The notes under the pieces are model-generated. The model searched no databases. It saw nothing but the letters and a program-made list of their open reading frames with translations, and was not told the DNA's origin. Below, one piece after another: positions 1-45,178 of a stretch of 64,000 nucleotides of DNA. The first letter of the stretch is position 1, and each line of letters opens with the position of its first letter. The translations under genes and the position numbers were made by a program. Origin of the DNA: Amoebophrya sp. A120 (lineage: Eukaryota > Protista > Dinoflagellata); contig CAJINV010000014.1 in the NCBI GenBank assembly GCA_905178155.1, positions 502,051 to 566,050 on the forward strand, in the 5' to 3' direction.

Positions 1-142
1 CCCGGCGGTTGCCCTATATGGTAACGGCAACTGCCTTCGCGCTGCGTTTGCTAAGCAATATCGCAAGCGCGCAGAGCGCGCGCGCCGGCTTCGTGGGCCG
101 GCGCGCGCTCTGCGCGCGCGCGCGCACGCATTTGGTTACCAG

Positions 143-184
143 ACCATCATCGGGGGGTCCACCACTCCTGCGTGACCCGTCTTA
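143..184. repeat. 33-bp core direct repeat, copy 1 of 5
   Basis: ACCATCATCGGGGGGTCCACCACTCCTGCGTGACCCGTCTTA; matches copies at 837, 2386, 3914 and 5410. Confidence 0.9.
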
Positions 185-836
185 TGGAAATGGAAAGAAA
201 AACAAGCCCGATCTGCAACCCGGATATTTGTGACGCATCTTGCCGAAGACTGCAGGCTCATGCGCGCGACACATCAAAAACAACTACGGCGCAGATGGGG
301 CTTTTTTCAAACATACCCTGCAGAAGATAGTCTTTGAAGATCTCCACCACCTTGGATTGGTTTCTCCCCTGTGTTCTTCTGTGCCCCGACGTGTCCGCGC
401 CTCCGACTAAGGTGGCCACCCCGGCAGGAAGGTGTGGTCGCGCAGTGGCGAGTGCGCCGGTCTTTGCTTCCATCCTGGGCGTTCCGCGCTTGCTCAACCC
501 GCGCTGAGCACCAGAGGGGCCGACATCAAGATGACATCAGGAGCAGAGCAACCACCGGGACAAGAACGAGGGCGACATTTTTCGGCTATGATTTCGGGGA
601 AGTTTCTATCACGCCACACATACGTAATTCTACATGCAAACTCGATCTTCATGCCATTGCGCATTCTCACGCGCGATGGCATGGCACTTGGATCCTGAGC
701 ACTGATATCGTAAAACGTCGTGCGAACACCCGAACAGCAAGAACTTCAGCAGCGCCAAAAAAACTGGACTCTGACAAAGTCCATTCATCAGGAAGGGCTG
801 CGACTTGGGTACCGCTTCGAGTATCACGCCTGGTTA

Positions 837-875
837 TCTACCATCATCGGTGGATCCACCGCTCCTGCGTGACCC
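837..875. repeat. 33-bp core direct repeat, copy 2
   Basis: TCTACCATCATCGGTGGATCCACCGCTCCTGCGTGACCC (2 substitutions in the G-run). Confidence 0.9.
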
Positions 876-1537
876 CTAAGCTCAAAGAAGAGCTAGTTAG
901 AAAACCAAAAAAAAAAAAGCTGCTCTGCTGCGCCGATCTTGTGAACAGTGTCCGTTTTGCCGTCGCAGCCCCCTTTCGGGCTGTGTGTGTTCGCGTGTGT
1001 AGTTCATTTGCGAGAGAACACCAGGAGCAGGTGTGCCGCCAAATTACTTCAGCAAGATACCACGAAACTTGCTGTGATTTCTATCTCTGACGACTGATCA
1101 TGCGAGTTGTTTACAGAGCGGGGTGAAGTTGCACTACGCATGAGCGCATCTCTCGCACCGCCCACAGCAGGGTTCGTGGGCCGCCGGGGCGGGGAGGATT
1201 GGTGTGTTGGTCTTTGGAGGCCTTCGCAGCTCAATCTCCTGAGGAGCGGTGAAACATGTTGAACAAACGGGGCTGAGAGACGTGTCAAGCAGGCGAGAGA
1301 TCATCAGCGAGCTTGTCGTTTGCTTTCTTGTTAACTTCTAAGAAAGAGTTACAACTGTGACCACACAGGAAAATAAAAAGATGGCGGCACCGAAAACTTT
1401 TCGCACTCGACCCTTCGCCCACCAACCGTACCTGGGTCATCTGTGGATTTGTTTAATCGTCGCCTTTTTCCCGACCCCCGCCCGGTCCCGCGGTTTTCTG
1501 CTGACCCGCAGCGACACGCAGAACAAAATTTTCTACT

Positions 1538-1859
1538 TATCAAAAGGAAAAATCCCCCCTCCCCATATCAAAAGGAAGTCTCTGATGCTGGATTTGCGTA
1601 CACAGATCAGCTTTGTATTGCAGAGAGGCATTTCGGGCAGATCTCCAGGCTAGTTAGGGGCGTATGTGTCTAGTTGTTCAGCATGGCAAGCGGGTCACTT
1701 TTAGGGCCAACAGCATGGCAAATCGCTTCCATAGTGGGGCGGAAGCTTCTGCCCTTGTCTTCTTGCAATACAAATGTGATTTGCGACCTCAAATCAGCAA
1801 CGCAAATTTTCGGAAGCATACCTTTTCGATATGGGGAGGGGGGATTTTTACTCAGGATA
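1538..1859. mobile_element. Introner family A (TIR core AAAAATCCCCCCTCCCCATAT)
   Basis: TATC...GATA ends, TIR, TSD CTACT on both sides; removal restores frame. Confidence 0.9.
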
Positions 1860-1901
1860 CTACTCGCTTTTGCCCAGCTTCGATGAATCCATCACGCATT
1901 C

Positions 1902-2172
1902 TATGCTGTGTAAAAACGTCCCCACCCCATAGTCAAGATGGGAAATCTGCAACACAAATCTCCAAGCTTTGGGAGTTCTGCATGACAAGTTTCCATCTGC
2001 AGTGTAGTGCTGGTTAACAAGGAAAGCCGCATGCGAAAGCCACTTTCTCATCCTGTTTAGAGCATTACAAATACCAAAAACCGGCTGAAAATGCCTCTTA
2101 TGGAGTTGCGCATTACAAATGTTTCTGTCATTGCGCATTTGCATTAGGGGAACTACGTTTTTACAAATGATA
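1902..2172. mobile_element. Introner family B (TIR TATNCTGNGTAAAAACGT)
   Basis: TATG...GATA, TSD CATTC; homologous to 33054, 48337 and 56294. Confidence 0.88.
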
Positions 2173-2237
2173 CATTCGCAACTGGACAGCACACAGCTGG
2201 ACCAGGATCCGGGGAGCGAGCCTCTCCGTGGGTGCCG

Positions 2238-2326
2238 TATTGCAAGACAGCGCGCATTTGTGTGCACAAGTCCTGCGTCACAGATTTCCCATTTGATATG
2301 GGATGGGGGCTTTTTTCATTTTGATA
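2238..2326. mobile_element. Truncated family-A-like element (one end only)
   Basis: GATATGGGATGGGGGCTTTTTTCATTTTGATA resembles a family A terminus; no partner TIR or TSD. Confidence 0.6.
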
Positions 2327-2382
2327 GAAACACCGTAACCGGAGAGACGGTGGCGATGAAGCGCATGAAGTTGCAGGATTAC
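2327..2382 (+). pseudogene. CDK-like protein kinase fragment (subdomain II)
   Basis: RNTVTGETVAMKRMKLQDY resembles the CDK motif RxxxTGExVAxKKxxL; only ~19 codons. Confidence 0.5.
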
Positions 2383-2385
2383 GTG

Positions 2386-2423
2386 TCTACCATCATCGGG
2401 GGGTCCACCGCTCCTGCGTGACC
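2386..2423. repeat. 33-bp core direct repeat, copy 3
   Basis: TCTACCATCATCGGGGGGTCCACCGCTCCTGCGTGACC. Confidence 0.9.
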
Positions 2424-3041
2424 ACAAACCGTCAACATCCATCATGGGCGCCAAAACAAAGGACATGTCCCGGCATTTCAGGCCGTTTTCGGGTGCCGCT
2501 TTCATCTCCCAAACCTGTCAAAGGCGCCACGGCATTACGCCTGCAATAGAGTGCCCACAGGCATGGGGGGCTTCGACGTGGGCGAACCTACCTAAGGAGA
2601 CAAGATGGCCGCTACGCTGCCCTGAATGACAACCCACCCTTGCGGCCGCCCTGCTGATCCGTCGGCAGCGAAAGTTTTGGCCCCCTTTTTTATTCACCTG
2701 AAAATGTCTAAAGCGAAAAAAGATATACGACTTCGCAGACATCACGGGGAGCTTGATAGTTAGAGTAGACCCGCGAAGGCCTTGCCTGAGAAAGTAGCTC
2801 ACTCGGACGGGAGCAAGACCAATGGCGCGCGAGTCGTGTTGCGCTTTGGTTCGAAAATCCGGCTGCTCCTGGCAAAAAAGCGAATGGGCCGAGGGACGGA
2901 GCCGTGGCTGGCGCGCTCCAAAAAAGCGCCGCGGCTAGCTATACAAACGCGATCTTCCCAAGCCAGCCTGGGCTCGCCGACCTTCCCAGCCGAGGCCGGC
3001 ACCGAATGTGGGGAGAAAAGAAAAACAGGAGCGCCACAATG

Positions 3042-3165
3042 TCCTTTTAGTGAATATGCCGGGGGGTATGGCAAATATGTGGGGCTATACCACCCCACAT
3101 ATTCGCAATCGCGGCGGCATACTGAATATTTGGGGTGGAGGGGGCCCGCATAGTCACTAAAAGGA
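3042..3165. repeat. Small foldback/inverted-repeat element
   Basis: TCCTTTTAGTGAATATGC ... GCATAGTCACTAAAAGGA (17/18) plus internal hairpin AATATGTGGGG..CCCCACATATT; no TSD seen. Confidence 0.6.
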
Positions 3166-3913
3166 GAGCAGCGCCGGCGCCAGCAACCGACGCGAGACGG
3201 ACACGAAGCCGACCTGTGGACGGGCCTCACAAAGCCCGAAGGCTTTTCAACAAGGCGACAACGCCGCCGCTAGTATGCTACGCGCGGCGAGCTGCGCGAC
3301 GGATCAAAAACCACCCGCAGGGTAGGGACTGTATGCCCACGGGCAACCAAGACAGGTCGCGCGGCCGCCCTCCTTTTTGCCCCCGGCCAAGCCGGCACAC
3401 ACGCGGAGCCCTTTCGGTTTTCGTGCGGGCGCCCCAAGCCGTAGCCGCCACGCCGGAATCGCCCCAAGGGCTAGAGCCGCCGGGATGGCACTCGGCTGTG
3501 GTTGAAGGTCACTCCGGGGAAATTGACGAAAATCCTGCAGCGCCATGCTAGGCGCTCAATGCTTTGCACATGCAAGGGAGGCAAACGCAAATCGAAAAGG
3601 TCGGCTTCACAGGAGGCCGCCGCCGGCGCCAATATTTGTCGCGAGTCTGTTTAACAAGCCCCGTTACTTACTACATTAGTGGCGCCCGGCATCAGCCAAA
3701 ACATCCAGAGCCAGAAGCGCTGTGGGTGCATTTCTCATGGAGACGCATGCCCTTTCCAACGAAAAGCGGCAACATGTTGCGCGCTACCTGAAGAGCGGCA
3801 ACATGTTGTGCAATTCGCGAAACCTAAAATCCCCCCGAATATGTGGGCCCTGAAAAAAGGCCGTTCTCGGTTCCGCGGCGCTAGTTTGTCCCCCCATATC
3901 CTTGTCCTCATCT

Positions 3914-3973
3914 TCTACCATCATCGGGGGGTCCACCGCTCCTGCGTGACCCGTCTTACTTGCGCCGTCTGTA
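3914..3973. repeat. 33-bp core direct repeat, copy 4 (extended)
   Basis: Shares 55 bp with copy 5, including CGTCTTACTTGCGCCGTCTGTA. Confidence 0.9.
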
Positions 3974-4489
3974 ATGATCAGACCATGCGCAATGTTCGCC
4001 CCTCCGAAAGATCAAGGCAGTATTTCGTATGAGGCACAGCAGGTGGTCAAACAATGAGGACACCATGCGCAAGCGCAACGCATAGGACAGGAGTCGAGGT
4101 GCAGATCACTCCACCCGCGCGTTCTAAAGATCCAAGAAAGAATTCAAAGATAAAGATCAACTCGCGCGGGGAACGGAAATCTAAAGAGATCAATGTCTGT
4201 TGCATCATGCTTCTAAATCTAAATCTAACTCCAGCTGAATCTAAAGATCCGATCTGGTGGTGGGAAAATGTTGTTGACAACAGAAAGAAGCTGAGCTCTC
4301 TTGAACATGGCCGATCAAAATATAGCTTTGCTTTGCCTGATCTGCTCCGAAGCGGGGCTACACTAGTTCCTCAAATATAGCCGCTGCATAGAACAAGTAG
4401 TGCTTGTTCCGACGCCAACTGTTTCTATTCCAATTTACAATCTCACAGGGACGAGAATCGTAGTCAGATTTTCACAAAACCGACTGAAA

Positions 4490-4875
4490 ATGGTGCACGT
4501 CTACAACGAAGCCACCAAGACCTTCTACCAGGTCCACCAGAAGAAGGTTGCCCAGCGACCGGCCAGGGAGGTGGGCAAGCGCCAGAAGAACACGGAATAC
4601 ATGAAGAAGCTCTTGGTATACTTGATATCGTCTTTTGGTTTTGTTTATTTCTTGCTTTGCTTTTGGCCGAAAATTATACCTACCAATGGAATTTAGATTT
4701 ATTTTGGGTGCAAGCAGCCTTCTGCAGGGCTAATGTGTACTACGATGAAGGGCGATTGGAGGATTTTATAAAATGCAAATCTTGAATTCCACCAAAAATT
4801 TTTCCCCAAATCCTAAAACAGGCTCTGGAGGCCGCGCACCCGGTGAAGTGCATTTACACGGACAAGAAGGAGTAA
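4490..4875 (+). CDS. Small basic protein, 59 aa, 2 exons (4490-4615, 4822-4875)
   Basis: ATG start, GT-AG intron 4616-4821, strong GC3 bias; MVHVYNEATKTFYQVHQKKVAQRPAREVGKRQKNTEYMKKLLALEAAHPVKCIYTDKKE*. Confidence 0.75.
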
Positions 4876-5106
4876 AAAGTCAGACGAGGACGACGCAAAA
4901 TGGTGCATAGAACAACTCTGAAAACAACAACCCTCGCTGCCAGATGACTTTAATTTGTGGCGCCGAACAGCACTTGTGCAGCGCGGAAAAATGTTGAGAA
5001 GATTCTGACTACGATTTAAAAATCTGACAGCAATTATTCTTGCTGGGAGGGTTTCCGCTGAAGTCCTTGCCGACGGCTTGGGAAAACGCTGCGGATCATG
5101 TTGCCT

Positions 5107-7741
5107 TCACAGAGAAGAGTGTTCCGGTCGTTGTGCGTAGCATTGTAGCACTAGGCTTTCCATCGTTGTTGCTACGATCTGAGATGGTGTCGAACGTAGT
5201 AGACCACCTCTCTTGCGAAACACACCATCGGTGCCGAGACCACCTCTCTTGCAAAGCACATCCATGCACGCTTTAGAAGAGCGACCGTGGCGAAGATGGA
5301 TCAAAAGCAACAGTTCGGTTCGTGCGAACAGCAACACAGAGGATTGAAAATCGCGATTTAGATTGACAGAAAAGGAGTAATAATCAGTCAGTCTCCTTTC
5401 TCCCGTCAACATCATCGGGGGGTCCACTGCTTCTGCGTGACCCGTCTTACTTGCGCCGTCTGTACCTCCTGAGGCTGTGCTGCCCCCTTGACGACCCTGC
5501 TGCTTGTCCTCGTCTCCTTGGTTTGGAAAAAGGAAGCCCGTCACGTTCTGTAGTAGTTGACCCACTAGGTTTCCGCCGAGAAGCTGAGAGGTTGTACTAG
5601 ACGTAGTCGTCGTTGTTCTCAGCCTACTATCGTCTACAACATGACCATCTTCTTCCATCTTTATGCCGTTACTCCCTAGGTCTGCCACGGCCGGATCGTT
5701 GTCAAGAACTTGTTCTAGTACGTCCACTTCCTCGTCTTTCATCTGCTTTTCCAACAATTTGAAATCCTCGCTATTCAGCGTCGGCTTTGCTCGGAGCGGC
5801 TGCACCGCGGAAGAGGGTGACGTCGAAGAACCATTTTCAACGAGAAGAGCATCAACATCTGGTCGATTTGCATTTCCATTTTTGTCTCTCTCTACTTTCG
5901 CTTTCCCGCCCGAAGCGGCACCGCCACCTGCCTGCTGCATGAAATCTCGCAAATTTTTCCCGGCGCCACCGCCCAGATACTGTTGCGACGCTTGGTTGGA
6001 AATTCTGGCTGTTTCGTTGCGGCGGTCCGCTTCAGCATCCAACACTGCGCGCTCTGACGGCGTTAGCACGTACGGCGAATCTTCCACGCGGCCGCCCGGC
6101 TCCACGTTTAATATTTTGCCCTTCTTCTCCTCTCTATGTCCTAGGCAGCAACAGCCCACCAGGCAGCACAGCAGCAGGAGCAACGCCAAACAGGAGAAAA
6201 CCACCAACCAGAAGAGGTCCAGCTCCTCCAGAAGTCCTTGTTCTCTACTAGTACTTGTTCTCTTTTCATCCTTTTGGCTCTTGGCCACGAAGGCAGCGGG
6301 GGTTGTGTGGCCGGAGCGGGCGGCGGCTTGACTTCGTCTAGCGTTAGTGAGCAGCAAGCTCTTCAAGTCATGTCTACTTGTTCCTCTATTTAGTTTCAGC
6401 GGAGGACCAATCGTTGCAGTTCCTGTTCTCGTCCCGGAATGACCGCTGCAGTTCCTGTTTGATCAACAAGACAGGGAAAATGGCCGCGCCCCGACCTCGG
6501 TTGTTGACGTGAGTGCTCGGAAAGGCCCGGCCGTGTCGCCGAGTCCTCTCGGAGAAGGCATCCCGAGCCGGATCGCGGTTGCCTGGCTTCTTGGGTTGCG
6601 TGGGTGTGGGGTGGCATCGGGCACGCAGCTGGCTGCCCGGCGCGGCTGTGCCGCCCCTCGATGCGAAGGCGGAAGCGTAGTGGGCGCAGGTGGGCGGCCC
6701 ACATTCGCCGACCGCGCCAGGTTTCGGAAGGGGGCAAGGGGGCGGGGGGAAGAATTTATGCCTTGGGAGGATTACCAAAGTGGCCCGCGTCGCAGCCGCA
6801 ACGAGCTGCAGAAAAAGCGCAAGCGGGGCAAAGGAAGCCAAAGCAGAGCTGTGCGCCCAAAGGTAGCTGCGATGAGCATGCCCCAGCCCAAGGCCCCGAA
6901 GGTGGGAGATGGGACCTGCGCCGCTATGAGGCTACATGACTTGCACGGCCGGCGTGGTAAACGAAGCGCACAAAGTGCTAGAGGTGGAAGCGGATCGACG
7001 CTTGTCGCGCGCAACTAGAGGCGTAGTATGCCCCTTGGGTGTCATCAACAGTGCCAGGCCCTGCGAGCCCCAGCAACAAGAGGCGACCGCGCCAACTCCC
7101 TTCGCCTTATTATCGGGAGAGGCGCGAGACCCAAAATTTTTTTTTCGTTTTGTTGAAAAGAAGGTCTTGTTGACAGATTTCGCTACCGTACCAATCGTTG
7201 CAGTTCCTGTTCTCGTCCCGGAATATGAAGTAGACGGCGAAGATCTTCTTGACGCGAGCGCCTCGTTGTCCTCTTCGTCAACATCCCTGGGCCACCTGGG
7301 GTAAATAACTCTTTTACTTTTCCTGCCCTCGCGTCTCCGGGTCCTTGTTTTCAAGAGTGTCACCGCAGAAACGCAACAGGAGCAGGACCATGATCTCCGC
7401 GATAACATCTTCATAGAAGCAGGTGCAGGAGCAGCAGTAGTCACAGTTCTTGAAAAGTAGGAAATAATATTATCTCCAACAAGATCCCCCGTCGCCATGG
7501 TGGTTTTCGAAAACTTCGACACAGTCTGCGACCAATTGAGAATTGCAGGAGAAGGCCGCGACGTCGGTATTGCAGTATTGAAAGGTTGTGGCCATGTGGA
7601 ATTATCCTGCTGCGCCGGCCGCGGGGAACGCTCGTCGATGCTTGCAAGGAAAAGAATGATGTGGTCCGTCCAACTAATAGAACCCATGCAAAGGAAGACG
7701 ACGACGAGAAACATTTTGAGATTATTTTTTTTGAAAATCAT
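5107..7741 (-). CDS. Putative type I membrane protein (signal-like N-terminus, TM followed by Cys cluster), interrupted by a direct-repeat-flanked insert
   Basis: ORF 6932-7777 joins ORF 5107-6366 in frame across the 35-bp repeat (SGTRTGTATIG); TM LFWLVVFSCLALLLLLCCLVGCCCL; true 3' end uncertain because of the repeat array. Confidence 0.6.
5410..5464. repeat. 33-bp core direct repeat, copy 5 (in coding frame, TDGASKTGHAEAVDPPMM)
   Basis: CATCATCGGGGGGTCCACTGCTTCTGCGTGACCCGTCTTACTTGCGCCGTCTGTA. Confidence 0.9.
6406..7224. repeat. 35-bp exact direct repeats (6406-6440, 7190-7224) flanking a largely GC-rich 749-bp insert
   Basis: ACCAATCGTTGCAGTTCCTGTTCTCGTCCCGGAAT at both positions. Confidence 0.9.
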
Positions 7742-11700: not shown

Positions 11701-13973
11701 ATCATACTGCGCATCGAGACCACCAGGGCAACCACCTCCAAATGTGCATTCATAGTCCAGAGCCTCTTTCAGCAACCTGCACTCCTCATCAGCTCGATGC
11801 CGTGCTCGACCCATAATTCTGCTTGTGGTCCCAGAATCCGCACAAGCCGAACAACCCCGGCGAACGTACTCGTCGATTTTGTCTCGGCCCAACACACGAT
11901 ACCGCGTCACAAACGCAGCCTCATTCCTAAAAATGGGCGAGCGTCTTCGTTTCGGTCGTGGTGGAGGGTCGTGCAGGTTTTTCAGGGTAGTTTGCGGTCG
12001 AGCGCCGGGAGCTGCAGGAGGAGTGGTGGACTGCGTTGAAAAAACTTCTGGTCCTCGCTGTCGGCCTTGTTCTTTACCAACAACAAGAAGGTCTTCTTGA
12101 TGCAAGTGAAGATGTTGTGCCTCGTTGTAGTTGTACAAAAATTCGCGCGCCTCGACCAGCATTGCGTTCAGCTCTGCAGCGAATGCATTGCAAACACCCC
12201 TGGATGTCTGGAAGCATGATGCAAGATTTGTCATGCTAAACCGAAGTGCGACACACTTTGCCTCCCCCTGTGTAAACGGCCGCAGATGGCTGTCACGCAG
12301 GGAAGGTGGGTCAGGCGGACATCGAAATGCCATGCAAGATTTGTCATGCAGGTTTTCAAACATGGCTCATGAAGTCTGGAATGCAGGACCTAGCGCGACA
12401 GATATGATCTCTATCGCTATCCTGCCTATGCTGCATCAGAAACTCTCTCCCAACTTGCTGGTCGAAAGAAGAAGTGGACAGCTTTTGGTAATCACGCAAC
12501 ACATCATACTTTTGCATGATTCAGATTTGGCGTGTCAAGATGCAGAGGTGGAGTTCCAGAGGGCTCAGACATATTTGCGGTTGATACCGCGTTTTTCTTC
12601 ACAACATTCCAGACTAGGCGTCTGAAATCAACACCCTCATCCGGGTCTTGCGCTGCGACTTCGCTCTCCACATGATTCTGTAGTTGTTGAAATTGTACAC
12701 GCATAGCCTCCGAAAATGTCCTCGGGATTCCGAAATTGAGGTACTCCGAACGGTAAATCCGGGACCGAGTTGCCAGTTTCTGAATCAGGAGGGACGATGG
12801 ACCAGCGCCGCGGGGGGCTCTCTTATTCGGAGTAGGAGCTTCTGCCTCACCTCCTTGTGGCGTCGGAAGAATTCCAGTACCTTCATCCTGACGCGCAGCT
12901 TCTGCTTCCTCCATTTTTCCGTTTAGTCCAGTTCCTTCGTCACAACCAAAACAACTTCCTGGCGCAGCACCCCCTCCGAAAAAAAGCTCTCCGAGCCACG
13001 GCTCCACGTCGTACTCGATCCACTTGAGAACGGTATCGTAGGCGCGATGCAGCTGCAGTGGGGAATTATAAAACGAGACATCCTGCTCCTCGTGCTCCAT
13101 CATATTACGACCAGGTCGGTCAGTCACAGTCTGCTCGCCACCTCTGCTGAATAAAGGAATAGTACCCGCAGAATCATAATTTGGCAGAGTAGGAGCTCCT
13201 GAGCGATCATTGCGTTGAGAGTTCTTGTAATTGTATCCTCCAAACACGTTGCTTTTCAGACTGAGCGAGTTCCGCTCCCAGAGTGCATGCTCCCGCAGAA
13301 ACGCGACGGATGCCACTTTCGCTTGCTCCAAACATATCCTCTCCAGGGCCTCCAAAATTGGCCGCTTCGTCTTGCTGCGCGGCGGGGGCGCTTCCTCCGG
13401 ACCCGGAGGTGTAGTTATAGAAGTGGAGTCGACGTCGTGTTCGTTGACCGGGCGTTCTTGTTGCGTAGGGGAAAAACTACCAGAATAAACATCATCAGGC
13501 GCAACACCCGAGAACAACAAAGGGCACGCCGCTCGTGGTTCGACTTTGCCTGCAGAGGTTGTACTTGTAGCTCCGCCTGCTCTCCTCAATTTCACCACCC
13601 CCCCTTCGTCACCTCCGATGGCGCGTAGAAATTCTTTATACTTGCCCAGAAGCAGAGCCTCACCCGATTTGTAGTGCGTGCGGCCGGTAGCAGCGGCTGC
13701 TCGTCGAGAACCTGGCTCGGCAGAAGCCGATGCTACGCTATGGCTGCGGCATAAGAAAGAACTCGCGTGGCTGACCTGTTCTGCTTTCTGTGCCAGGAAG
13801 ATTTCTGAGTTGCACAAATAGTCCTGGCTCCATGGGGACGGAAGAGCGCCGACCACGGCTAGTAAAAGCGGATGGAGTTGTATAACATGCGAGAGAAAAA
13901 TGAGTACGCGCCGCTGACGAAAAACGACTTCCACCCGGGCTGTTGAATTAGTAGGGGGCCACGTCCTCTTCAT
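8701..13973 (-). CDS. Large hypothetical low-complexity protein (~1,650 aa)
   Basis: ORFs 12504-13973 and 8701-12363; GT donor at 12509; junction resolvable in two ways; no domain recognised. Confidence 0.6.
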
Positions 13974-14755: not shown

Positions 14756-17039
14756 TTAAGCTCCCACTTTTCTTTTTTTCGCCGGTTTGTTCTTGTTATC
14801 CCCAGCTGTTGTACCCTCTTCGTCCACGTTCAGCGGACACTTCACCTTCGGTTTCCCGAGAACTTTGCAGCAGTTATAGCCCCACTGCTTCGTGGCAACG
14901 TCGTAGTAACTGCCGTAGACCGACTTGTGCCCGTACCGAAACACGTCTTCCTTGTACAGTGTGGAAGTCGTGTGCTTCTCTTTCTCTTTGTCTTTATTCA
15001 TCTGTGCGTTCTTATCCTCGATGGACTTGTTGTACAGCGTGGACCTGGTCTCGTCGTGCTCCGGAGGTTTCGGCACCTCCACTGGATTTTTAGCTTCATC
15101 TTGCAGAAGTAGTTCAGAAGGAGGTTCTAGTACTTGTTGCGCGCCGCTTGTTTCATCTCGTGCCAGTACCGAGGACGTCCCCGGCCGCTCGGTGAGCAGG
15201 AGGGATGTTGCGGAGGAAGACGCCGCCGCCGTCGGTGCAGCAGCACCGGAGGATGTAGTCCCAGCAGGAGCTGCAGACGGCAAGTCGTGCGCCAGATCTG
15301 CCTTGTTTTCACGACCTTGCTCACCTTGTATTTTTAAAAGCGCGGCACTACTAGAAGTAGTAGCGGACTGAAGTTTGTGTTGGTCATCGTGTTCGTTTAT
15401 CATCGTCTCGGGCCGCGGGGGCACGTTCATATCTTCCAAAATTTCGCTTGGTTGTTTGTTTTGTTGGAGCAAGGAGCTTGAGCTGCTGCTCGAGGAGGCG
15501 GCTTGTTGATGTTGTGGCGCCAGTATTTGCGGAGCTGCACCCAATCTCGAGGATGAAGAGGAGGAGGCACCTCCAGATCCAGCCCCGCCCAGCAAAGACC
15601 CTAACTCCCTTTTACCTTCCTCGGCCGCAGCAAATGATCGTGCTGCCTCGTCGTCTCCTGGCTCACCGAGCAACAACCCGGGCTCGACATCTTCTATCGC
15701 ACGAAAAAACGGCGTCACTGTAACTACGATCAAGTAAGGCTTGCATAGCATTTTCACATCACAAGTTCAAGTTCTTCTACATGACAAAGAAAATTAGGCC
15801 CTCCATGGTGCACCTGGCCTACTAACACTACATTTGTAGAGAACAACTACTCGGTTGCACATCCGTATAAGCATAACTCTCGTCTGCTGGGTCCTCTGCG
15901 AGGACGTCACCAAAGATTATACAATGAAACACATTTTTCTACTTGCGATACCGTCCTGGTCACCCGGATGAATGTTAATTTCTTCTTCGTTTACTTCTAG
16001 CGGTCTCTTCCCGCTACTGCCTGCCGCTCCACCGCTTGGGCCTAGTCCACCCTGCTTCAGCCGTTCCTGTTCTTCCCGCATTTTCTTCATCCTCTTCTGC
16101 GTCTCTAGGACCGACTGCTTTTCCTCGGGGCGCATGCTGTTCACGTTCTTCCGGGCAGTGATGTCCGCGAACAGGTCCTTAAAGCCGCCCGTCTTATGAA
16201 AGCCGCGGGTTGGAAATGCTCAAAGTGGAAAGGATTTGTGATGCATGAAAATGCGACACAAAAAAGACTGCACTGCAGAGAACGCGATGGAGGCCGACCC
16301 CGACTATTGTCCTGCTAGGGGTGAAGAATTGGGGTGCTGCTTAGCACGACAGAAGGGCACCCCCTTGCCTTAACCTGCATGACAGACATGCTTTAAGTGC
16401 CCGGGAAATTTGTGATGCGCCAACTACAAATGCCGCTTCAACTGGAGTCGATTTTTTGCATTACAAATTATTTCCACTTTGAGGATTTCCAACGACCTGA
16501 GACTTGCATACGTCTTGTTCCGCTTTTCCTCGGCCGTCATCTTCGTTTTCGCCGCCGCCTGCTGGCCCAAAAGGAGGTTGGACTTCCGGATCTCTTCCAG
16601 CTTCCGCTCCTCCTTCAGCCGCATCTCGCGCTCCTCCGCCTGCCGCTCCAACTCCAGCTGCCGTTCTATGGGGTTCTCAAATGTTACATTCTCAACTGTT
16701 GCATGAATTTGTAATGCAAGACTGGTAAAAGTGCAAGGAGGAAGATTGCGCCTTTTGCATTACAAGTTTGGCGCAGATTCAGTCGCGGCTTAGCCCTTCG
16801 CAAATTTCTCATGCGGAGCAGCTTGATCGTGGGGAGGATGATGGTGCTTTTGCATGACAAATTCATGCAACAATTGAGAATGATGTAACGTTTGAGAACC
16901 CCATACGTTCCTGGTGCATCCACATCCGCTCTTGGTTCTGGTGCGCCGACGGGTGGAAAAACTTCTGCGCGATAAACCCGCCCGCCTTCGACCCCAGGCC
17001 GGACCGAAACGCTCCCTTATCGTGGAACTTTTTGGACAT
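14756..17039 (-). CDS. Splicing-factor-like protein: Cir_N/CWC25-like N-terminus plus Slu7-like C-terminal motif (~486 aa)
   Basis: Exons 17039-16906, 16661-16511, 16189-15952, 15693-14756 in frame; QKFFHPSAHQNQERMW and YKEDVFRYGHKSVYGSYYD...WGYNCC motifs. Confidence 0.7.
15695..15950. mobile_element. Aged introner now framed by GT...AG
   Basis: Sense G-TATCGCA...TGCGATA-G; flanks GACGG/GAAGA (3/5). Confidence 0.65.
16195..16510. mobile_element. Introner family D
   Basis: TATG...CATA, TIR GTTGGAAATNCTCAAAGTGGAAA, TSD CGTCT; frame restored (NKT/GGF). Confidence 0.9.
16667..16905. mobile_element. Introner family C (TIR TATGG..CTCAAA.GTTACATTCTCAACTGTT)
   Basis: ~50-bp TIR, TSD CGTTC; frame restored (QER/QLE). 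Confidence 0.92.
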
Positions 17040-32300: not shown

Positions 32301-35300
32301 ATTTTCCAAATTTTCTGTTGTCGCCGGAGCGCTTGCCGCGTTCAGAGTACGCCTCGTGGTTGTAGTTCCAAGCTGCGCGGTATCCCGAAGCGCCGCGTCG
32401 GCTGCAGTAGCTCCATTTTCCGGGGACGCCAAATCTGGCGCTGTGGTAGCTCCGCCCTTGTTCGCGAGGAACATTGCTGCTTGCTTTTTGGACGCGACGG
32501 TGGACTTGGCCCTTCGCGTCGGCGGCGGACTCGGACTTGGGCTAGGTGACGCAGATTTCTCGGACGCCGTTTTCTCCGAATTCGTTTCAGAAGTATTCGG
32601 CTCAGGGAAATACAAAGTTGGCGACTTGCCCCTCGCCGCACCACCAGCTCTGGTATTGTTCCCCGCTTTTGGCGGCACTAGCCCGGCTTTGGCCGCGGCC
32701 TTCTTCGGCGCCGCGCCCGGCGGGCCGGCGGGGGACTTCGCTTTCTTCGGCTGCGCACCAGTTGCACCACCGCGGTCTCCTCTCCTACCCGCTGCTGTTG
32801 CAGCCCTTTGTTCACCTTGCGGCCCTTCCGCCGCGGCGCCCGCCCCAGCTGGTGGCGCGGCCCGGCGACCCTGTCCTCTCGGTCCTGCGGTCGTTGCGGT
32901 CCCAGCTGCTGATGCCCCGGAAGCTCCAGCGCCGGGAGACGGAGACGCGCCGACTGCCGCCGATCCAGCCATGCTGTCGTCCAAAGTCGTCGCCGCTCCG
33001 CCTCCGGAGAGGTTTGACCTAGTCGTGTTGGTCAAGGTTCTTTCCTCGTCTTCTATACTGAGTAAAAACGTACCCACACCAGAGTCAGGATGGGGATTTT
33101 GCAACACAAACCTAGGGGTTTTGTGAGTCACGCGTGACAAGTTGCGCTCTGCGGTGTAGTGCAGGTTAGCAAGTGCAGCCGCATCACAGATTCATCTGCT
33201 CATCCTGTTCACAGCATCACAAATTCCAAAACACGACTGGAAATGGCGCTCATGGGGATGCGCATTACCAGTCTTCCTGTCTTTGCAAATCTGCATCACA
33301 ACTCTGGTATGGGGACGTTTTTACTCAGGATATCCTCAAAATCCCCGTCAAAGTTGTCGTAGCTGCCATAATTGATGTTGTCCTGTTGCTCCAACGTCTC
33401 GCGGATCTGCAGAGTCGCTTTCAGAAATTTCGGCAGAAACTGCGAGTCTTGTTGCGCCTTCGACGTCCCGACTACCTCGCGTGCTTTGTTTCCGATTTTT
33501 GTCTGCGTGCGGTCGAGGAAATTTTGCACAAAGTTCTTGAACGCGCGTGAGTTCAGCTCCTGCTTCGTCACATTGTGAAAATACGGGTGGTCCTGAGCCT
33601 GGTAGCGGGATTTCATATTCATTGCACTGGCGGTTGCAGCAGCTGTGTTATCGCCGTTGATCGAAGTAGCGGACGCAGCTTTGTTTAGCAACCCACTTGT
33701 CCCGCCTACTGCCGCATTTTGGTCCGCCGCTCCCTGTGCGGCGGCGGCGGCCTTGTCTGCTTTCGACGTCTTCGCGCCTGGAAGTAGTTTCGTCCCAGCT
33801 GCCTTGTTTTCCGCAGAGCCGCCAGAGGACTTCGCAGAGTTCGAGGACCCTATTCTTTTCGCCGGCTTTGCCTTAATTTCGGGGGCACCTTCCTCGGGAC
33901 CTACAGTTCCTATTGTCGTCGTGGCTTCCCCGCCTGGAATTGCTTCGTTTCTTGCAGAAACGGCACCCGTTCCTTCCACAGCTTCCTCCGACAGAGAGAT
34001 CGCGTTAATCGACAGTCCCAGTTGACTGATCGTGGTCGCCACCTTGTCGAAGTCCGGCACGTGCCGGTCAAGCGGCGTCCGCAGCCGCACGGTGCTGTGA
34101 AAAATGAACCGCTCCAAGTCTTTGGAACTCTGCTTCAAGTATTTCGCCAGGTGCATGGTCGTCTTCCGTAATTTCTTATTCAACAAACACATGGAATTCT
34201 GCACCGAATCACGCAGCTCGTACCGCAGAAAGCTGACGAACTTGAGCGCGTCCGCGAACGGCGTGTTGATCTCTTTGAACTGTTCCTTCATCCGCTGCAA
34301 TTTCCAGCGGCGCAGCACCGCTTGGGCGCGCTCCTCCGGACTCACCTGCGCCTCCACCTCCTTCTGCTTCTTCAGTTCCTTCGCTTCTTCCGGATTCACG
34401 GGCGTGTCTTTCAGAAACACACTCAGGAGAATGGAAAACTCTTTCGGGTCTTTGTGCAACCCTTTTGCGTTCAATTTCATCAAGGATTGCTGGTCGAAGG
34501 CGTAGTTGCTCGGGTCTGTGGTCGTGATCGTGTCCGGCGCATTCATCGCACTGTGGTGTCCACCACCGGCGCCCTTGTGGTGGGAATGAGGGGAGTGAGC
34601 GGAAGTAGATTTAGTAGTTGCATCAGGAGCAACTGTACTGTCATTCTTGGATGAAGTTCGATTCGTTCCTGATAGCCCCAAGAACGACAGACTCCCGGGG
34701 TCCGCAGGGCTTCTTCCGGTCAGATTGAACAGCACCCGTTTCACGGCGGACCGAAGGAGGACGGGCGGCACGCCGTTGTTGTGCTTCACAAAGTCCTTGC
34801 CCGACACGTCGAACAGAATGCGCTTGCGACTGATGGCGGCTTGTTTGGTCTCCGGCACGTTGGCGAGTCTGGTGAGCAAATGCTTGAAAACTTTGAACTG
34901 CTTCTTCTTCTCGGTAGAAGTTCCACCACCAGCGGAAAACGGGTTCGCGGCCAGTTCCTTCTCCTTCTGTGCTATCTGTTTCATCCGCTGACGGGCTAGC
35001 AAGTTCCGGCATTGAGAGGAAAAATCCCCCCTCCCCATATTGAAAAGGTATGCTTCCGGAAATTTGTGTTGCTGATTTGAGGCCACAAATCACATTTGTC
35101 TTGCAAGAAGACAAGGGCAGAAGCTTCCGCCATATTATGGAGGCGATTTGTCATGCCGCTGGGCCTAAAGGGGGGCCGTTTGTCATGCTGAGCAACTAGA
35201 CCCATACGCCCCCAGCTAGTCTGGGCTAGCCTGGGGATCTGGCCGCAATGCCTTTCTGCAACACAAATCTGATTTGTGTATCCAAATCCAGCATCAGACA

Positions 35301-38300
35301 TTTCGTTTTGATATGGGGAGGGGGGATTTTTCCTTTTGATATCCGGCTCACCATCATCTTCTTGATCGCCCACCGGAACAGCCAGGGGGCTTGCGCGCGC
35401 TTCCGGATTCCGTGGCTCACCAAGTAGAACAAGTCGCGATTTTTCCGGATCAAGACCACGTAGGAGCAAGACTCGAACGGCTGACTATCCGGTAGCACCA
35501 CCGCCTCCTGGTGCGTGGGCACCGCCGCCAACTGCGCTGCGAGGGTCGTTATGAACTGCAAATATGTCTGGGTCTGGAAAGATCCAAGGCTTGTCATGCT
35601 TGTCGGACATGACTCTCAAGTCTGTCATGCACATTACCCAAAAGCCCCACTTTTCTGTCATGCAGAAGCTCGCTTTGTCATGCAGAAAAGGCAAGACTGT
35701 AGCACCTGCCTCCAAAACTTGTCATGCTTCTGCCAGTCAATTGAGGCGTCCTCGTCCTTCGCAACCAGCATCACAAGTTTCCAGACCCAGACATATATGC
35801 ATTTGATAGTCGTGGCGGCCGCGACGGAATCCGCATCTTGAAGCGCGCGCTTGAGCTTTTCGATTTTGTTCTGCGCGTTGATCTGCAGCATGTTATGCAA
35901 TACAAATTTCCCGCACATGTACAAAATGCATCACAAATTTACCCAATTTGGAGCGTAACTACGCTTGTCATGCTAAACTAGGATCGAAGGTAGGTTTTCT
36001 CATGCACCACCAGACACCGTGTGTGTACGTGTACGGAAAATTTACTGTGGATACATGTTGGCCTGCTTCACCAGGTCTTTGGGGTCGAGCAGCAGGTAGG
36101 AATCGGCATAATTCGCATCATGCAGATCCAACTGCACCGGTTGGCTTGAAGATCCTGTTCCTGAAGACCCTTGCTGGGTGGAAGCGCCAGCTGCCCTGGA
36201 TGCTGGAGACCCTGAAATAAAGATTGGTTTTTTTTTGGAGATGTAAAGGCTTGTCACGAAAGTAGGTGTTTTTGGTTCTAGTTTTCTTGAGCCTCGTCTA
36301 AGTACTACTTTTACAAAGACGTGCTGCACAGTAGCGGTGGGCACTAGTAGAGTCGGTCACAGGTGCCAAAGTAGAGGAGCCTTAGTTGTATATAATCCAC
36401 GACAAAAGTTCTCGTTCATCATCTTCATTTGTGCTCCTGGTCTTCATAAATTAATACCTTTAAGTGCCCCACCGCTGGTCATGATCCCCCCAGCAGTCGC
36501 GCCTCCATTATACGCCTTCAAATCCGCTAGCGCTCTGGCATCGTAGGCGGGATCACTGACGAACACGATTTTTGTGCTCGCTAACATCTGCGGATTCTGT
36601 GCGGATAGCACTTTCCGCACGCACTCTCGCACTTCGCCGATTTTCTGGCCCGCCCGGAAAGAGAAACTCTTGCAGACAAACGCCGGCTCCAGTTTTCCCC
36701 GGTCAACGTTCATATTATTAGCCTTGTTGGCAGATGATGTTAAACCTGCAGCCTTCGTTCCGGTTTTGGAAGTCGGTGAATTGGTGGACGGCTGTCCTGT
36801 ACCACCTGTCGCAGCTCCTGCTGCTGTACTTCTAGTTGCTGCTCCTTGTTCAGGACTTTCACTTGCCGCAGCACCTCCGCCTCCCGATGGCAACGCAGCA
36901 GATCCAGCCGCACTACTGGATGAAGCAGTTGTCTTCGTCACGTCTGCGTTCAATCCGTAGACCGGCAAGTGCTTGCCGCGCTGCAGTTCCGAGGATTCTT
37001 GCTTTCTGATGACTTGCAAACAGTAGTTTTCGTCCAGCACTTGAAGTTCCTTTTCCAATTTCACCAAAGTCGCCTCCAAATACTTGGAGTTCTGAAACAG
37101 CAGCTCGCAATGCGAGGCGAGCGAATGGAGCAAAACATCCATGAGAGAGTCCGTCTCGATGATGGACCGCATTTCCTGCAGAGATTTGGGCCGCCAGTCG
37201 CTCGGAGCCGTCGGAATGGACGATTTCGGAGACACGCCGAATTTCGTCTGATCAGGTGCTTGATTTGGATAATTCCTGGTGTTCTTCATCGCTAGTAGAA
37301 GATTATTTCCTCCTGCTGTCGTTCCGCTACCACGGGACGTCGCGGGCCTTGACCCTGTAGTTGTTGATGTCCCAGAAATACTCGTACCTCCACCACCGCG
37401 ACCAGAGGAAGACCCTTTGTTCGGCCGGGTTGACCTGCTGTTGGCGTTATTTGTTCCGCCTCTAGAAGCTCCTGTAGTACTCGAATTCAAATTTATTCCC
37501 GTCGTTTTCACCCCATCAGCACCGTCCTCCCCCTCGCCACCAACACTGCTGAACCCGGTCTGAAAGAAGGCCAAATCTTCCGGACAGTCCTTCTGTAGTA
37601 AGTACCCGTCCTTGAAGCACTGCAGGAACAAAATCTGCTCCAGCTCACTTGTCAGCTGCTTCCGCGCAACCGCGTCGCCGTGGGTCTCCTTATTGATACC
37701 GCTGCTGGACTTGTTATTCGGAGTTGACGACGAAGATGTTGACGCGTTTCCACTAGTACTGCTGTTATTTTTGTACGCGGAGCTCCGCAGCAGTTGCTGG
37801 TCCTCGTTTGCGTCCACGCAGTACCGCACCGCGAAGTAAAAATTGTTCAGATTGTTTATCGAAAAGAAAAATCCCCCCTCCCCATATCAAAACGGAATTT
37901 CTGATGCTGGATTTGTGTACACAAATCGGCTTTGTATTGCAGAGAGGCATTGCGGCCAGCTCCCCAGGCTAGGCAGGGGCGTATGGGTGTAGTTGCTCAG
38001 CATGGCAAACGGCTCCCCTTTAAGCCCGCCAGCGTGGCAAATCGCTTCCATAAAAATGGGGCGGAAGCTTCTGCCCTTGTCTTCCTGCAAGACAAATGTG
38101 ATTTGTGACCTCAAACCAGCAACGCAAATGTTCAAAAACATACCTTTTCAATATGGGGAGGGGGGATTTTTCCGTACGATATTGTTCACAAACTCCTTCA
38201 TGTTCGCAAACGTGATTCTGGTCTGGTGCAGAGAACTGATCAGGTGGTCGTTCCTCGTGCGAAACAGCTGCCCGAAATCAGATAAGTACTTCGCCGCCGG

Positions 38301-42246: not shown

Positions 42247-45178
42247 CTACACAGAATTTTTACTTCCCGTTCTACTGTTATTTTTACTCCCATTTATATT
42301 GTCCTTTTCCTCTTGTCCTTTCCCAACAATTTGCAAGAATTGGCTCGTGCTTTTCTCATCGCCTAATTTTAAAGCGGGTTTGTCCCGCGGGTACATTAAC
42401 AAATATGCAAAGCTTAGTAGGCACCAGCATAGCAACATAATCACAAACACGTCGTTTTCGAAAAACGCGCGGTAGAACTTCAAGTACCGAATCTGTGCAT
42501 TGAAAACCACGTCTGCCGTTGTCGCGCGCGCGTAGTCCCGGAACGCCAGCTGCGCAAACTGGACGATGGCGCAAGACGTGAAATTCACCAGAATCGCGTT
42601 GAACAGCAGGCTGTTGAGTGGCGTGTGGCCCTTCTTCATGGGGTGGATGGAAAACAGACAGAACGCTCGCATCCCCACCTTCAGACAGCCGGTGACGGTC
42701 GCGAACACCAGGTGCATGTTGAGAATGGCGAAAAACACCGCGGCTAGCACGAAGAGTCCGCTGGACTCGAAGGCCTGCAAGAACTCGTTCAGCATGAGGG
42801 AGACCGGCTCCTCGTTCTCCTCGCCCGGCTGGTCGATGAGGAGGTAGAAGAAGATGTGCAGCACCCAGAAAAAGGAGATGATCGCGAAAATGACCCCGAA
42901 AAAGACCTTGAGCCCGCTGGTGACCGGGTTTTCGCCCCGCTGCTTCATGCAGATCTCCATGTGGTCGTACTCCTTTTCGAGCAAAAAGCACGATATGGGA
43001 CTCTTAAACGTTACATTCTCAACTGTTCCATTAATTTGTCACGCAAAAGCACCTTAAGCCGGCAGATGATCAAGCTGCTTCGCACGACAAATTTCGGAAG
43101 GGCTAAACCTGCGGCAAACTTGTAATGCAAAGGGCGCAATCTTCCGCCTTTCACTTTTGCCAGTCTTTGTCTTGCATTACAAATTCATGTAACAGTTGAG
43201 AATGTAACATTTGAGAACTCCATACACGACTGCTTGAACTTGTTGAACTCGGTTTTCAGCTCCCGTTTTCGCTTGTTCACGTTGGAAAAGTACCCCCCGG
43301 TGGCGTCCTTCAGTTCCGTTTCCCGGTCCTGCAGTTCCTGTGCCTTCGCGAGAAGCGACTCCGCGGTTTGCGCGTACAAGATCTTCCGGCTCGCGTACTG
43401 ACTCGCGGTGATGGGTTTCGGCCGGTCTTGGTATTCGATCAGCAGGTCCATGGGCAGCGCCGTCAAGCCCACGCCGCCAAATACGACGAACAACCACCAG
43501 CCGAGGAAGCAGAAGACCGCCATCAGGTAGATGTCGAATCTGACATTGATCTCCAAGAATTTCTCCGCGGAGATTGCGCACACGTGGCCCGACCGAATTT
43601 GCTCGCTCGCACTGATCCAGTTGCCGCACGGGTAGTCCTGCACGGGGAGCTTGGCGACGGCCAGGAAGGCGAAGCTAATCAAGAGAAACATGAAGACGAT
43701 GAAGAAAAAGAACGGCTTATCCTGTGAAAAAGTTCAAACGATATCGCACTCGTAGTTGTGATTTGTTTCAATGCATAATTATTTCCCAGGTAACTCAGCA
43801 TTGCATTACCTTCGTTCTCCTTTGGAAAAAAAAATTCTTTCAATGCAAATCCACTTTCTGTTTCTACTACGTAGGGCGACATTGCTTTATTTGCGGTGCA
43901 TACAGCATGTTCACGAGCAATTTCCTTCCCGGGCTGGAGTTGCGAAATTGGGCGAGTCGGCTGGTCGTGTTCGCATTGCTGGTCGCCGCAGCTCCTCCTC
44001 CTGCGCTACTGCTACTGCTGTTGCCGAAAACGATCTTCCAGTCGCCGTTGATCTCGAGCTATCAAAAAGAAAAATCCCCCCTCCCCATATCGAAAACGAA
44101 ATTTGTGATGCAGTATTTGAGTACACAAATCGCATTTGTCTTGCTGGAGAGGACTGCAGACCCATACCAAGCCTGAATGGAGAGGCTTTGACTTAGGCGC
44201 TTAGCATGAAAAGCGTCCGCGATGTTGGCTCAACAGCATGACAAACCGGCTCCATAATGGGACGGAAGCTGTTGCCCTTGTCTTCTTGCAACACGCACGT
44301 GATTTGTGACCTCAAATCAGCAACACAAATTTTCGAAAGCCTACCTCTTCAATATGGGGAGGGGGGATTTTTCCTTGCGATACGAGCCAGAAGATGCCCA
44401 TGGGAAGCACGAGCAGGATTTATTACAGTGAAAAGTGCCCCCCACCCCCAAAGTTGCAAAAATTTGTGATGCGAAGTTTCCAAATGAAACCTTTTTGTCA
44501 TGCATGAAAGGAATAGGAATCTTTCTGATGCAGATTCTAGTGTTGTTTCGCATCGCTTGCATGACAAGCACCGCTCTTGCTGGGATCTTTTGCAATACAA
44601 ATTTTTGCTCTTCACGATCGGAAATCTGTGATGCTGATACATGCAAGACGGCGATTGTTTCATTTTGAAAGGTTTGCAATACAAATGCTCCCAAATTCGG
44701 GGGTGGGGGCATTTTTCATTGTAATAGGATTAGTAGGATCACAGAAATGAACGCGATCAGCCAAAACGCCTCCATGTTCAAGCCGCCATTATTCCGCGCG
44801 TTCCGCACGTCAATGGGCAGGAGAAAAATCACGATATACGCAATGGTGAAGCTGGCGATGACCACGAAGCGCAGCCCAATGTGGTCCTTGGAAGCTTCGT
44901 CCGAGTCTCTGTATTCCGTGCAAAAGTATCTCGCTTCATCTAGTATAACGGAGTGCTTTTATGCATGACATTGACATCAAATCAGTTTACGTCTAGTAAG
45001 TTTGCAAGGCTGAATTTTCATGACCAGTTCCATTTGTTTCCTTTTGAAAAGAGTACTGTACGAAATAGTACGATACTTTTGCAATGCATACTTCGTAGTA
45101 GAAGACCATTTTCGCGTTGATCACGAAAAAGGAGAAAATCCCCGCGATCGCGAAAAAAAGAAGGAAAAGGTCGATCAT
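42247..45178 (-). CDS. LMBR1/LIMR-family multi-pass membrane protein (~560 aa)
   Basis: LLPIDVRN, LGWWLFVVFGGVGLTALPMDLLIEYQDRPKPI, HPMKKGHTPLNSLLFN; exons 45178-45091, 44906-44727, 44415-44383, 44054-43903, 43712-43225, 42988-42247; all 5 introns are introners. Confidence 0.88.
42994..43224. mobile_element. Introner family C
   Basis: TSD CACGA. Confidence 0.92.
43718..43902. mobile_element. Diverged introner family E
   Basis: TATCCTGTG...TGCATA; TSD CGGCT/CAGCA (3/5); frame restored. Confidence 0.78.
44060..44382. mobile_element. Introner family A
   Basis: TSD CGAGC. Confidence 0.92.
44421..44726. mobile_element. Introner family I (TIR TATTACARTGAAAARTGCCCCC)
   Basis: TSD GGATT. Confidence 0.92.
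44912..45090. mobile_element. Diverged introner family E
   Basis: TSD CTCTG/CTTCG (3/5); joins YYE/DSDE. Confidence 0.8.

Follow-up and report, generated by a model that had tools for sequence, protein, structure and literature searches.

A repeat-spacer array of captured genomic fragments at the end of an orphan gene in Amoebophrya sp. A120

In a 64,000-nt stretch of the genome of Amoebophrya sp. A120 (contig CAJINV010000014.1; called here the window, within which all coordinates are given), a minus-strand orphan gene, the host gene, ends in an array in which direct copies of a 33-bp core of its own coding sequence alternate with spacers of other genomic DNA (Table 1). We propose that this array is probably the scar left at the end of the gene by break repair in which DNA synthesis switched its template repeatedly. 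We favor this reading because the donors seen are intact, introns are kept, poly(A) is lacking, the junction fillers are templated, a haplotype exists with a single repeat copy, and a second insertion site lies in the same gene. Templated double-strand-break repair had been one candidate in an earlier reading made from the letters alone (the sequence-only reading), and it is now the best explanation.

The repeat, its host gene and a one-copy haplotype

The 33-bp core occurs five times (starts at 145, 842, 2391, 3919 and 5410, with 1, 2, 0, 0 and 2 mismatches), and none of 100 shuffles yielded any 33-mer match, confirming that the array is real, with five core copies where none is expected by chance. 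The sequence-only reading had described five direct copies spaced about 0.7, 1.55, 1.53 and 1.49 kb apart, with spacers showing no similarity to each other, and all of this was borne out: the core-to-core distances are 697, 1549, 1528 and 1491, the positions it gave (143, 837, 2386 and 3914) being the starts of extended matches. BLASTN among spacer 1, the left part of spacer 2, spacer 3 and spacer 4 gave no match at E<=0.5, and the middle of spacer 2 consists of dispersed introner-like repeats. With no mutual match and, for three of the four, donor DNA elsewhere, the spacers are not diverged copies of one tandem unit.

Depth was assessed in two DNA runs (X1 and X2) of one sample, possibly the source of the assembly itself, in which single-copy contigs have depths of 20-27 and 41-47, respectively. 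Contigs called probable RNA below are so called because an RNA origin is not stated on the record. Copy number of the repeat was estimated from contig depth with a rough de Bruijn simulation that assumed a depth of 40. The three repeat bins together gave 285, against simulated values of 274 with no extra copies, 335 with one and 697 with five. The repeat is thus present about five times in the genome, a number that fits no extra copies beyond the array, and is therefore not the end of a dispersed element. Exact scans for it gave no match in viral or metagenome contigs (an exact scan also misses the one-copy haplotype, which differs at a fixed position).

We consider an assembly or amplification chimera a barely credible source of the array. 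No listed record spans all of it, contigs over the copy 4 junctions are absent among those listed, and the assembly may itself have been built from the best DNA runs. Against this, depth is present in 30 of 30 bins in X1 and X2 alike, and a DNA contig (115-905, depth 20) with 0 differences contains copy 1, spacer 1 and copy 2, its joint recurring in the other run of that sample. A contig of probable RNA, produced in another study, spans copy 5 and both flanks (4821-6435) with 0 differences, the fillers at the junctions do not occur in the donors, and the copies differ by coding-type substitutions, two of which are common to an independent haplotype.

The repeat is coding sequence of the host gene (GHAGAVDPPMM). 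Copy 5 lies in the coding sequence of the gene at 5107-7741, as the sequence-only reading had stated, but that gene is an uninterrupted 617-aa frame from 7741 to 5107 only once the 784 bp at 6441-7224 are removed; copy 4, which had been read as plausibly continuing to MGDKL, instead reads MMVEDEDKDMGGQTS... in frame. The bulged hairpin that had been drawn for the repeat is no more stable than shuffled sequence (z from -0.08 to -1.23 on the plus strand and from +0.55 to -0.89 on the minus strand), since an equal or better fold was reached by 21 to 143 of 200 shuffles, and Rfam gave 0 matches in the 64 kb. The last 101 codons of the host gene derive from a filler and spacer 4, and the host transcript contig continues past copy 5 into spacer 4, where it runs antisense to the donor gene as far as about 4650. 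No homologue of the host protein was found (the best Atlas score, 0.78, is a lead at most).

The search with the host protein gave one related locus, L001, among 293 candidate stretches. L001 is 93-95% identical (gaps included) and holds one repeat copy in 2800 bp and no spacer DNA, supplying a probable empty allele, for which a comparison of haplotypes had been proposed. Its frame stops 9 codons past the repeat (ending MMVEEPLLVRL and a stop), and beyond it lie 2.2 kb that match no spacer and carry a converging DnaJ_C gene. L001 is probably the pre-insertion state. The L001 left flank matched none of the nine junction segments of the array, and its own flank has no filler signature (p 0.09-0.55). 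The DnaJ_C gene (957-2467 of L001, minus strand) has introner-like introns, the locus being a strand-switch point in that haplotype. L001 also has a 5-nt frameshift and a 1.6-kb deletion of the host gene, hydrophobic segment included (223-229 of L001, joining window positions 7314 and 5737), with a 6-nt filler that resembles nearby sequence. Because the host gene is damaged in both haplotypes, in the window by a fifth insert that shifts its frame unless spliced out, there is no sign of function and none is implied for the array.

Captured fragments, junctions and a second insertion site

Donors, known by contig depth and by 30 loose letters at each end, were found for spacer 3, spacer 4 and the right end of spacer 2, as well as for the fifth insert, and in each case a second copy is intact elsewhere in the genome. 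The captured DNA, which had been taken for foreign fragments, is thus from the same genome wherever a donor was seen, and the donors of spacers 3, 4 and the right part of 2 are expressed loci, as judged from probable-RNA contigs. Spacer 3 has a depth of 76-89 against 41-47 for single-copy DNA, with loose ends at 2446 and 3898. Two contigs depart at each end, one of them from an older copy 85-89% alike, which makes the window the recipient. Between 3020-3898 and a probable-RNA contig of 9570 nt there are 25 differences in 879. At its right end, the spacer 3 donor has a short multi-copy element (3839-3898, bin depth 368), and the donor continues with the complement of the 8-mer 3867-3874, so that the capture ends within a small hairpin element.

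Over 4033-5389, spacer 4 has a depth of 52 against 25 in X1 and of 78 against about 42 in X2, with a loose end after 5389. It contains a whole 59-aa two-exon gene (4490-4875), and the GT-AG joint of its intron (4616-4821) is spliced in a probable-RNA contig that carries the donor letters. Divergence from the donor is uneven within the spacer (12 of 268 on the left, at least 5 of 1076 elsewhere in it; Fisher p 8e-6), and its use as a clock was rejected for this reason. A 13-nt inverted repeat (4456-4468 and 5004-5016) flanks the 59-aa gene; the segment is present in two copies by depth and is not an abundant element.

At the left of spacer 2 lies a gene's 5' part with the region upstream of it (ATG at 1381; GT-AG intron at 1428-1511). 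It holds two introners with depths of 50,000-70,000, at 1538-1859 and at 1902-2172, both with 5-bp duplications, and removal of the intron and the two introners leaves an open 57-aa frame. A single introner arm (2238-2326) and a 53-nt exon piece of a probable cyclin-dependent kinase gene (2327-2379) follow. A low-depth probable-RNA contig (1221-1427, 0 differences) stops immediately ahead of the GT at 1428, hinting that the gene start in spacer 2 is transcribed and spliced in place. Positions 2335-2379 match a 3580-nt probable-RNA contig with 1 difference, and this contig then continues unlike the window. The exon reads RNTVTGETVAMKRMKLQD, and the next 30 letters of the donor contig translate by hand to EEEGVPSTAI, which we take to resemble the PSTAIRE helix region of a cyclin-dependent kinase; the 20-aa piece at 2320-2379 had no match in Pfam or PDB, and the kinase label was not confirmed. 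Likewise, the 42-aa exon of the spacer 4 gene had no homologue, and eleven spacer and host frames gave 0 Pfam families at E<=5. The left part of spacer 2 (887-1460) and spacer 1 have single-copy depth, and contig depth revealed no donor at 88% identity or above for either. Spacer 1 has a strand score of 0.007-0.015, its orientation is not called, and a probable-RNA contig (459-689) covers it at depth 2.5.

No spacer ends in poly(A): in the 40 nt next to the ends, A/T runs reach 4-5 at the longest (a run of 9 lies inside the left end of spacer 2). Inverted sequence common to the spacer ends, sought over 80 nt, amounts to 5-10 nt at most. The repeat is absent from the 30 letters seen at each donor flank. 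Introns are retained: three in spacer 2, one in spacer 4 and one, predicted, in the fifth insert. Spacers 2, 3 and 4 and the fifth insert, four of the four that are readable, are in sense on the plus strand, opposite to the host gene, for which the chance is 1 in 8 to 1 in 16. Orientation was read from the gene structure in spacer 2, from the spliced intron in spacer 4, from the strand score and an AG where the RNA contig begins in spacer 3, and from the strand score and predicted splice sites in the fifth insert; the strand score is imperfect, since 10 of 78 held-out tiles and the host gene's own 7225-7741 also scored plus.

Short fillers of 6-22 nt, not present in the donors, occupy five of the junctions. 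Four of the five match near-target sequence at p<=0.05, uncorrected (the 6-nt filler does not), whereas none of four other spacer ends does. The p-values are against 200 random windows, the segment 3899-3913 having been used for the filler at 3899-3910; the filler of the fifth insert resembles the 35-bp sequence duplicated there, with p 0.005-0.01.

Measured against L001, the left ends of the repeat copies lie at -2, -5, -5, -8 and 0, placing five breakpoints within 9 bp, and the right ends at +40, +34, +33 and +55; the duplications are 33-63 bp long. If each copy were a duplicate of its neighbor, spacer 1 would have to precede spacer 3 by the right ends yet follow it by the left ends, a conflict that depends on either 3 shared letters (1 in 64 by chance) or 7. 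L001 and copy 2 differ at 1 core position, against 3 for copies 3 and 4; the two synonymous variants of L001 are in copy 2 and absent from copies 1, 3, 4 and 5. Simple nested target-site duplication does not fit, since nesting is absent among the ends and copy 2 carries the variants of another haplotype, and the repeat copies therefore likely came from intact templates, at least one of them of the other haplotype. The earlier proposal of repeated insertion at one site with duplications stands as far as ectopic fragments and re-copied target flanks are concerned, and falls for simple nested duplication. A polar, gene-proximal order of growth (4 of 24 orders allowed) was dropped once L001 placed the left end of copy 4 at -8, and none of the 24 orders passed an enumeration in which the first spacer was given -2. 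Because the filler left of spacer 3 repeats the left junction of copy 5, spacer 4 appears to have been present before spacer 3, which suggests that the array grew away from the gene.

A second insertion lies in the same gene, between two identical 35-bp copies, with the restored 617-aa host frame standing in for its pre-insertion state. A contig at 6493-7007 has a doubled depth (61) and 19 differences in 515, and splice signals in the sequence predict a gene start (ATG at 6480) and an intron (6509-7176). The 35-bp duplication is unrelated to the 33-mer and has the same anatomy; the process is therefore independent of the 33-mer and concentrated at the host gene, and no further non-introner direct-repeat pairs of this kind were found between 8 and 64 kb of the window. 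Together, the second site and the 1.6-kb deletion with filler in L001 show that the locus is break-prone. A 10-nt inverted repeat near the ends of the fifth insert (6463-6472 and 7164-7173) may be due to chance.

Table 1. Features of the array, the host gene and neighboring elements
Feature	Position	Strand	Remarks
High-copy hairpin element, introner-like or like a miniature inverted-repeat transposable element (MITE)	17..143	.	right end adjoins copy 1
Repeat copy 1	143..184	+	-2 to +40 relative to core start
Repeat copy 2	837..875	+	-5 to +34; both synonymous variants of L001
Repeat copy 3	2386..2423	+	-5 to +33; contig 2386-2549 covers copy and right junction
Repeat copy 4	3911..3973	+	-8 to +55; boundary from L001
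Repeat copy 5	5410..5464	-	within host gene reading frame
Spacer 1	185..836	.	652 bp, single-copy depth
Spacer 2	876..2385	+	1510 bp: upstream region and 5' gene part, introners, exon piece, 6-nt filler
Filler left of spacer 3	2424..2445	+	22 nt; 11-mer identical to junction 5403-5413 left of copy 5, p ~0.005
Spacer 3, donor-derived segment	2446..3898	+	second close copy and older copy extend past both ends
Filler right of spacer 3	3899..3910	+	12 nt; resembles host gene 5501-5512, p 0.005-0.03
Spacer 4, donor-derived segment	3974..5389	+	left boundary between 3974 and ~4000
Filler right of spacer 4	5390..5409	+	20 nt; 8-mer common with 5512-5519, p ~0.045
Host gene	5107..7741	-	orphan; strong hydrophobic stretch from residue 251 on and weaker N-terminal one
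Second duplication, left copy	6406..6440	+	35 bp, 100% identical to 7190-7224
Fifth insertion	6441..7189	+	749 bp: ~22-nt filler resembling 35-mer, then segment duplicated elsewhere
Second duplication, right copy	7190..7224	+	35 bp, unrelated to 33-mer repeat
Inverted-repeat elements (examples)	1538-1859, 1902-2172, 16667-16905, 33053-33333, 35017-35341
Inverted-repeat elements (further examples)	37857-38181, 38600-38839, 44060-44382, 48336-48616

Templated break repair and the alternatives

In the repair process that we propose, a break or block would arise just left of the repeat, where in L001 two converging genes meet. A 3' end running out of the gene would stall just past the repeat and leave its template, loop-out synthesis by a polymerase-theta-like enzyme would make the fillers, and 0.7-1.5 kb would then be copied from ectopic loci elsewhere in the genome. 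On return to an intact gene template, 33-63 bp of the gene would be copied again each time, the template being presumably a sister, a homologue or a non-adjacent copy rather than the neighboring copy. Growth would proceed away from the gene, with spacer 4 before spacer 3, and reading of donors from the exposed sense strand could account for the single orientation. One burst or several rounds would both be compatible with this scheme.

The array likely belongs to the class of repair-mediated templated insertions, differing by insert size, duplication length, stacking and orientation. Dependence on repair proteins (polymerase theta, Rad51, loss of Ku) is a further mark of that class, and dinoflagellates go unmentioned in the available parts of PMC6635534. 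Comparisons with the papers cited from here on hold for the parts of each paper that were available. Repair-mediated duplications of vertebrates have a mean of 162 bp and target duplications of 4-21 nt, and include a class with both filler and duplication (PMC2671141). These resemble the array in the ectopic copy at a break, the intact donor, the junction filler, the occasional target duplication and the lack of poly(A), whereas the array has inserts of 0.65-1.5 kb and duplications of 33-63 bp, four stacked in one orientation. Templated insertions that yeast dna2, rad27 and RPA mutants acquire at induced breaks (PMC11724301) and class 2 templated sequence insertion polymorphisms (TSIPs; PMC5110952) have medians of 88-191 bp; they are likewise copy-paste genomic fragments, some of them complex, with donors often at R-loops or fragile sites. 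In contrast to the array, class 2 TSIPs lack target duplications and class 1 TSIPs have poly(A), and the available text describes no stacking. Fillers made by SD-MMEJ (end joining that is synthesis-dependent and microhomology-mediated) with polymerase theta are short inserts that repeat near-break sequence, as here, but this would explain the 6-22 nt fillers only and not kb-sized fragments (PMC2943611). New introns of Daphnia arising from staggered breaks share direct end repeats, parallel gains (43 of 90) and second insertions at the same place, but their repeats are 4-12 bp, their sources are mostly not known and the inserts are spliced (PMC4202315). We found no account of this locus or of such stacked captures in the literature searched, which comprised main texts and a minority of subscription papers.

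Several points weigh against repair. The duplications of 33-63 bp are longer than those described for repair insertions (4-21 nt in PMC2671141 and 4-12 bp in PMC4202315, in the parts available), and the clustering of breakpoints within 9 bp together with a single orientation would be expected from a site-specific nick with reverse transcription, so that repair needs an extra assumption to explain both. No donor was seen for spacer 1 or for 887-1460, microhomology between donor and target is not demonstrable where 30 loose letters are visible, and the filler p-values carry no correction for the 9 segments, 3 regions and 3 mismatch levels tried. Lastly, L001 is a single short contig with damage of its own, and a further insertion could account for its flank.

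The nick just mentioned could be made in the gene's coding strand by a site-specific non-LTR (long terminal repeat) retroelement protein acting in trans, which would reverse-transcribe unspliced cellular RNA while the long variable duplication regenerates the site. Such retrotransposition typically has a fixed first nick, a variable second cut, poly(A), loss of introns and an RT/RLE element with the same target elsewhere in the genome, and retrotransposon hot spot (RHS) genes likewise show repeated insertion at one position with target duplications. Here, the left breakpoints fall within 9 bp, the right ends vary from +33 to +55, four of four readable inserts are in sense on the plus strand, and the donors are expressed, all of which this explanation would accommodate; the left breakpoints are not identical. 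Non-LTR elements exist in Amoebophrya (PMC7789003), and CRE-clade retrotransposons of trypanosomatids insert repeatedly at one position with target duplications variable in size; those inserts, however, are copies of one element with reverse transcriptase and poly(A), whereas the array holds unrelated, intron-bearing gene pieces (PMC12278014). We consider this explanation unlikely: five of five whole introns are kept (one of them predicted) without poly(A), the junction fillers are templated, the second target has no clear consensus with the first, and no reverse transcriptase or endonuclease family occurs among the 20 window frames scanned. In addition, non-nested ends and mixed haplotypes misfit serial local duplication, and the target, with its lack of Rfam matches, is not a conserved repeated gene.

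The mixture of haplotypes could also mean that each spacer went in by itself at a common hot spot, on a haplotype different from those of the others, and that recombination or gene conversion through the repeat stacked them later. This would lift all nesting limits and account for the L001-type variants of copy 2, the missing donors of spacer 1 and of the left part of spacer 2, and the uneven divergence of spacer 4 from its donor. We likewise give it a low probability, as exchange within 33-55 bp would be required, no single-spacer haplotype was found in the one other haplotype examined, and the filler beside spacer 3 copies the copy 5 junction, which suggests that spacer 3 entered a molecule already holding spacer 4.

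The repeat-spacer layout had led to the comparison with CRISPR (clustered regularly interspaced short palindromic repeats) and integron arrays, and the hairpin with a GTAG beyond it to the one with Helitrons. A dedicated capture system of this sort would use a structured repeat and store fragments for small-RNA defence or C-terminal variation; the layout, the clustered breakpoints, the one orientation and the host transcript that runs on into spacer 4 in antisense to the donor would be in keeping with it. CRISPR arrays have short, even-length spacers from foreign DNA and are processed into small guide RNAs, each new repeat is a full copy of its neighbor and growth is polar; the array instead has spacers of 0.65-1.5 kb from the same genome, non-nested and differing ends, and a copy 2 of another haplotype. 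Integron cassettes each carry a structured attC-like site, whereas the fold here is not above shuffles and the donor flanks seen lack the repeat. Both kinds of array have a cas or integrase gene nearby, and no such family was found among 20 frames, all within the window and thus none left of position 1. Helitrons have a 3' hairpin followed by CTRR, dispersed termini and no target duplication; the array has GTAG in three of five copies, a weak fold and about five copies of a repeat that is host coding sequence rather than a dispersed terminus. Neither a CRISPR- or integron-like system nor a Helitron end is therefore supported, and we regard a dedicated system as very unlikely: the repeat is limited to this locus, the same anatomy recurs at an unrelated sequence, the spacers are self DNA, copies 2-4 are not covered by contigs of a probable-RNA run (X3), and the host gene is broken in both haplotypes.

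A more speculative and improbable variant is a capture route of the lineage's own, in which a nick at gene ends, directed by sequence or structure and regenerated by each 33-63 bp duplication, would stack kb-sized pieces of expressed genes in a fixed orientation without element ends. If true, it would be an integron-like array made by cellular or borrowed retroelement enzymes, yielding new C-termini and antisense RNA to donors, and a possible source of the many non-canonical introns of the genus.

Other features of the window and implications

The window is organized in one-strand gene blocks with many short inverted-repeat elements flanked by 5-bp duplications, the same pattern as in Amoebophrya genomes with introner elements (PMC7789003). 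At least five inverted-repeat families are present, most with TAT...ATA ends and 5-bp duplications, and several lie inside reading frames as introners. They share with the array the kind of genome, and two with 5-bp duplications lie inside spacer 2, but introners have terminal inverted repeats and duplications of 3-5 nt and are dispersed, whereas the spacers are unique with duplications of 33-63 bp (PMC7789003). The element adjoining copy 1 folds with z -4.1 and has a depth of about 2000 against 20-27 for single-copy DNA; other contigs depart from the window at 143, the flanks of the element differ, and a 5-bp duplication is absent at its junction with copy 1. Short stretches of 18-24 bp are duplicated locally, in tandem or nearly so and at distances of 29-113 bp, at 3761-3811, 5201-5260 and 12219-12349. 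Among the long frames, clear Pfam matches were confined to minus-strand LMBR1-like (42250-43038) and PP4R3-like (52674-53450) exons; the best match of the LMBR1-like gene is in Amoebophrya sp. AT5.2 at 75% identity (2 matches among 315 candidates), in keeping with an Amoebophrya-like syndinian, likely a marine parasite of algae.

In conclusion, the locus is a legible natural record of templated DNA capture, as donors, fillers, breakpoints and a one-copy haplotype can be read at one place, and it shows that no CRISPR-like system is needed for coding sequence to give rise to a eukaryotic repeat-spacer layout. Should the locus be alone, it would be a curiosity in a decaying gene. If long duplications around kb-sized inserts are common in the genome, they would provide a searchable footprint for the origin of Amoebophrya orphan genes and new introns, and, through orientation and intron loss, a test of DNA against RNA templating.

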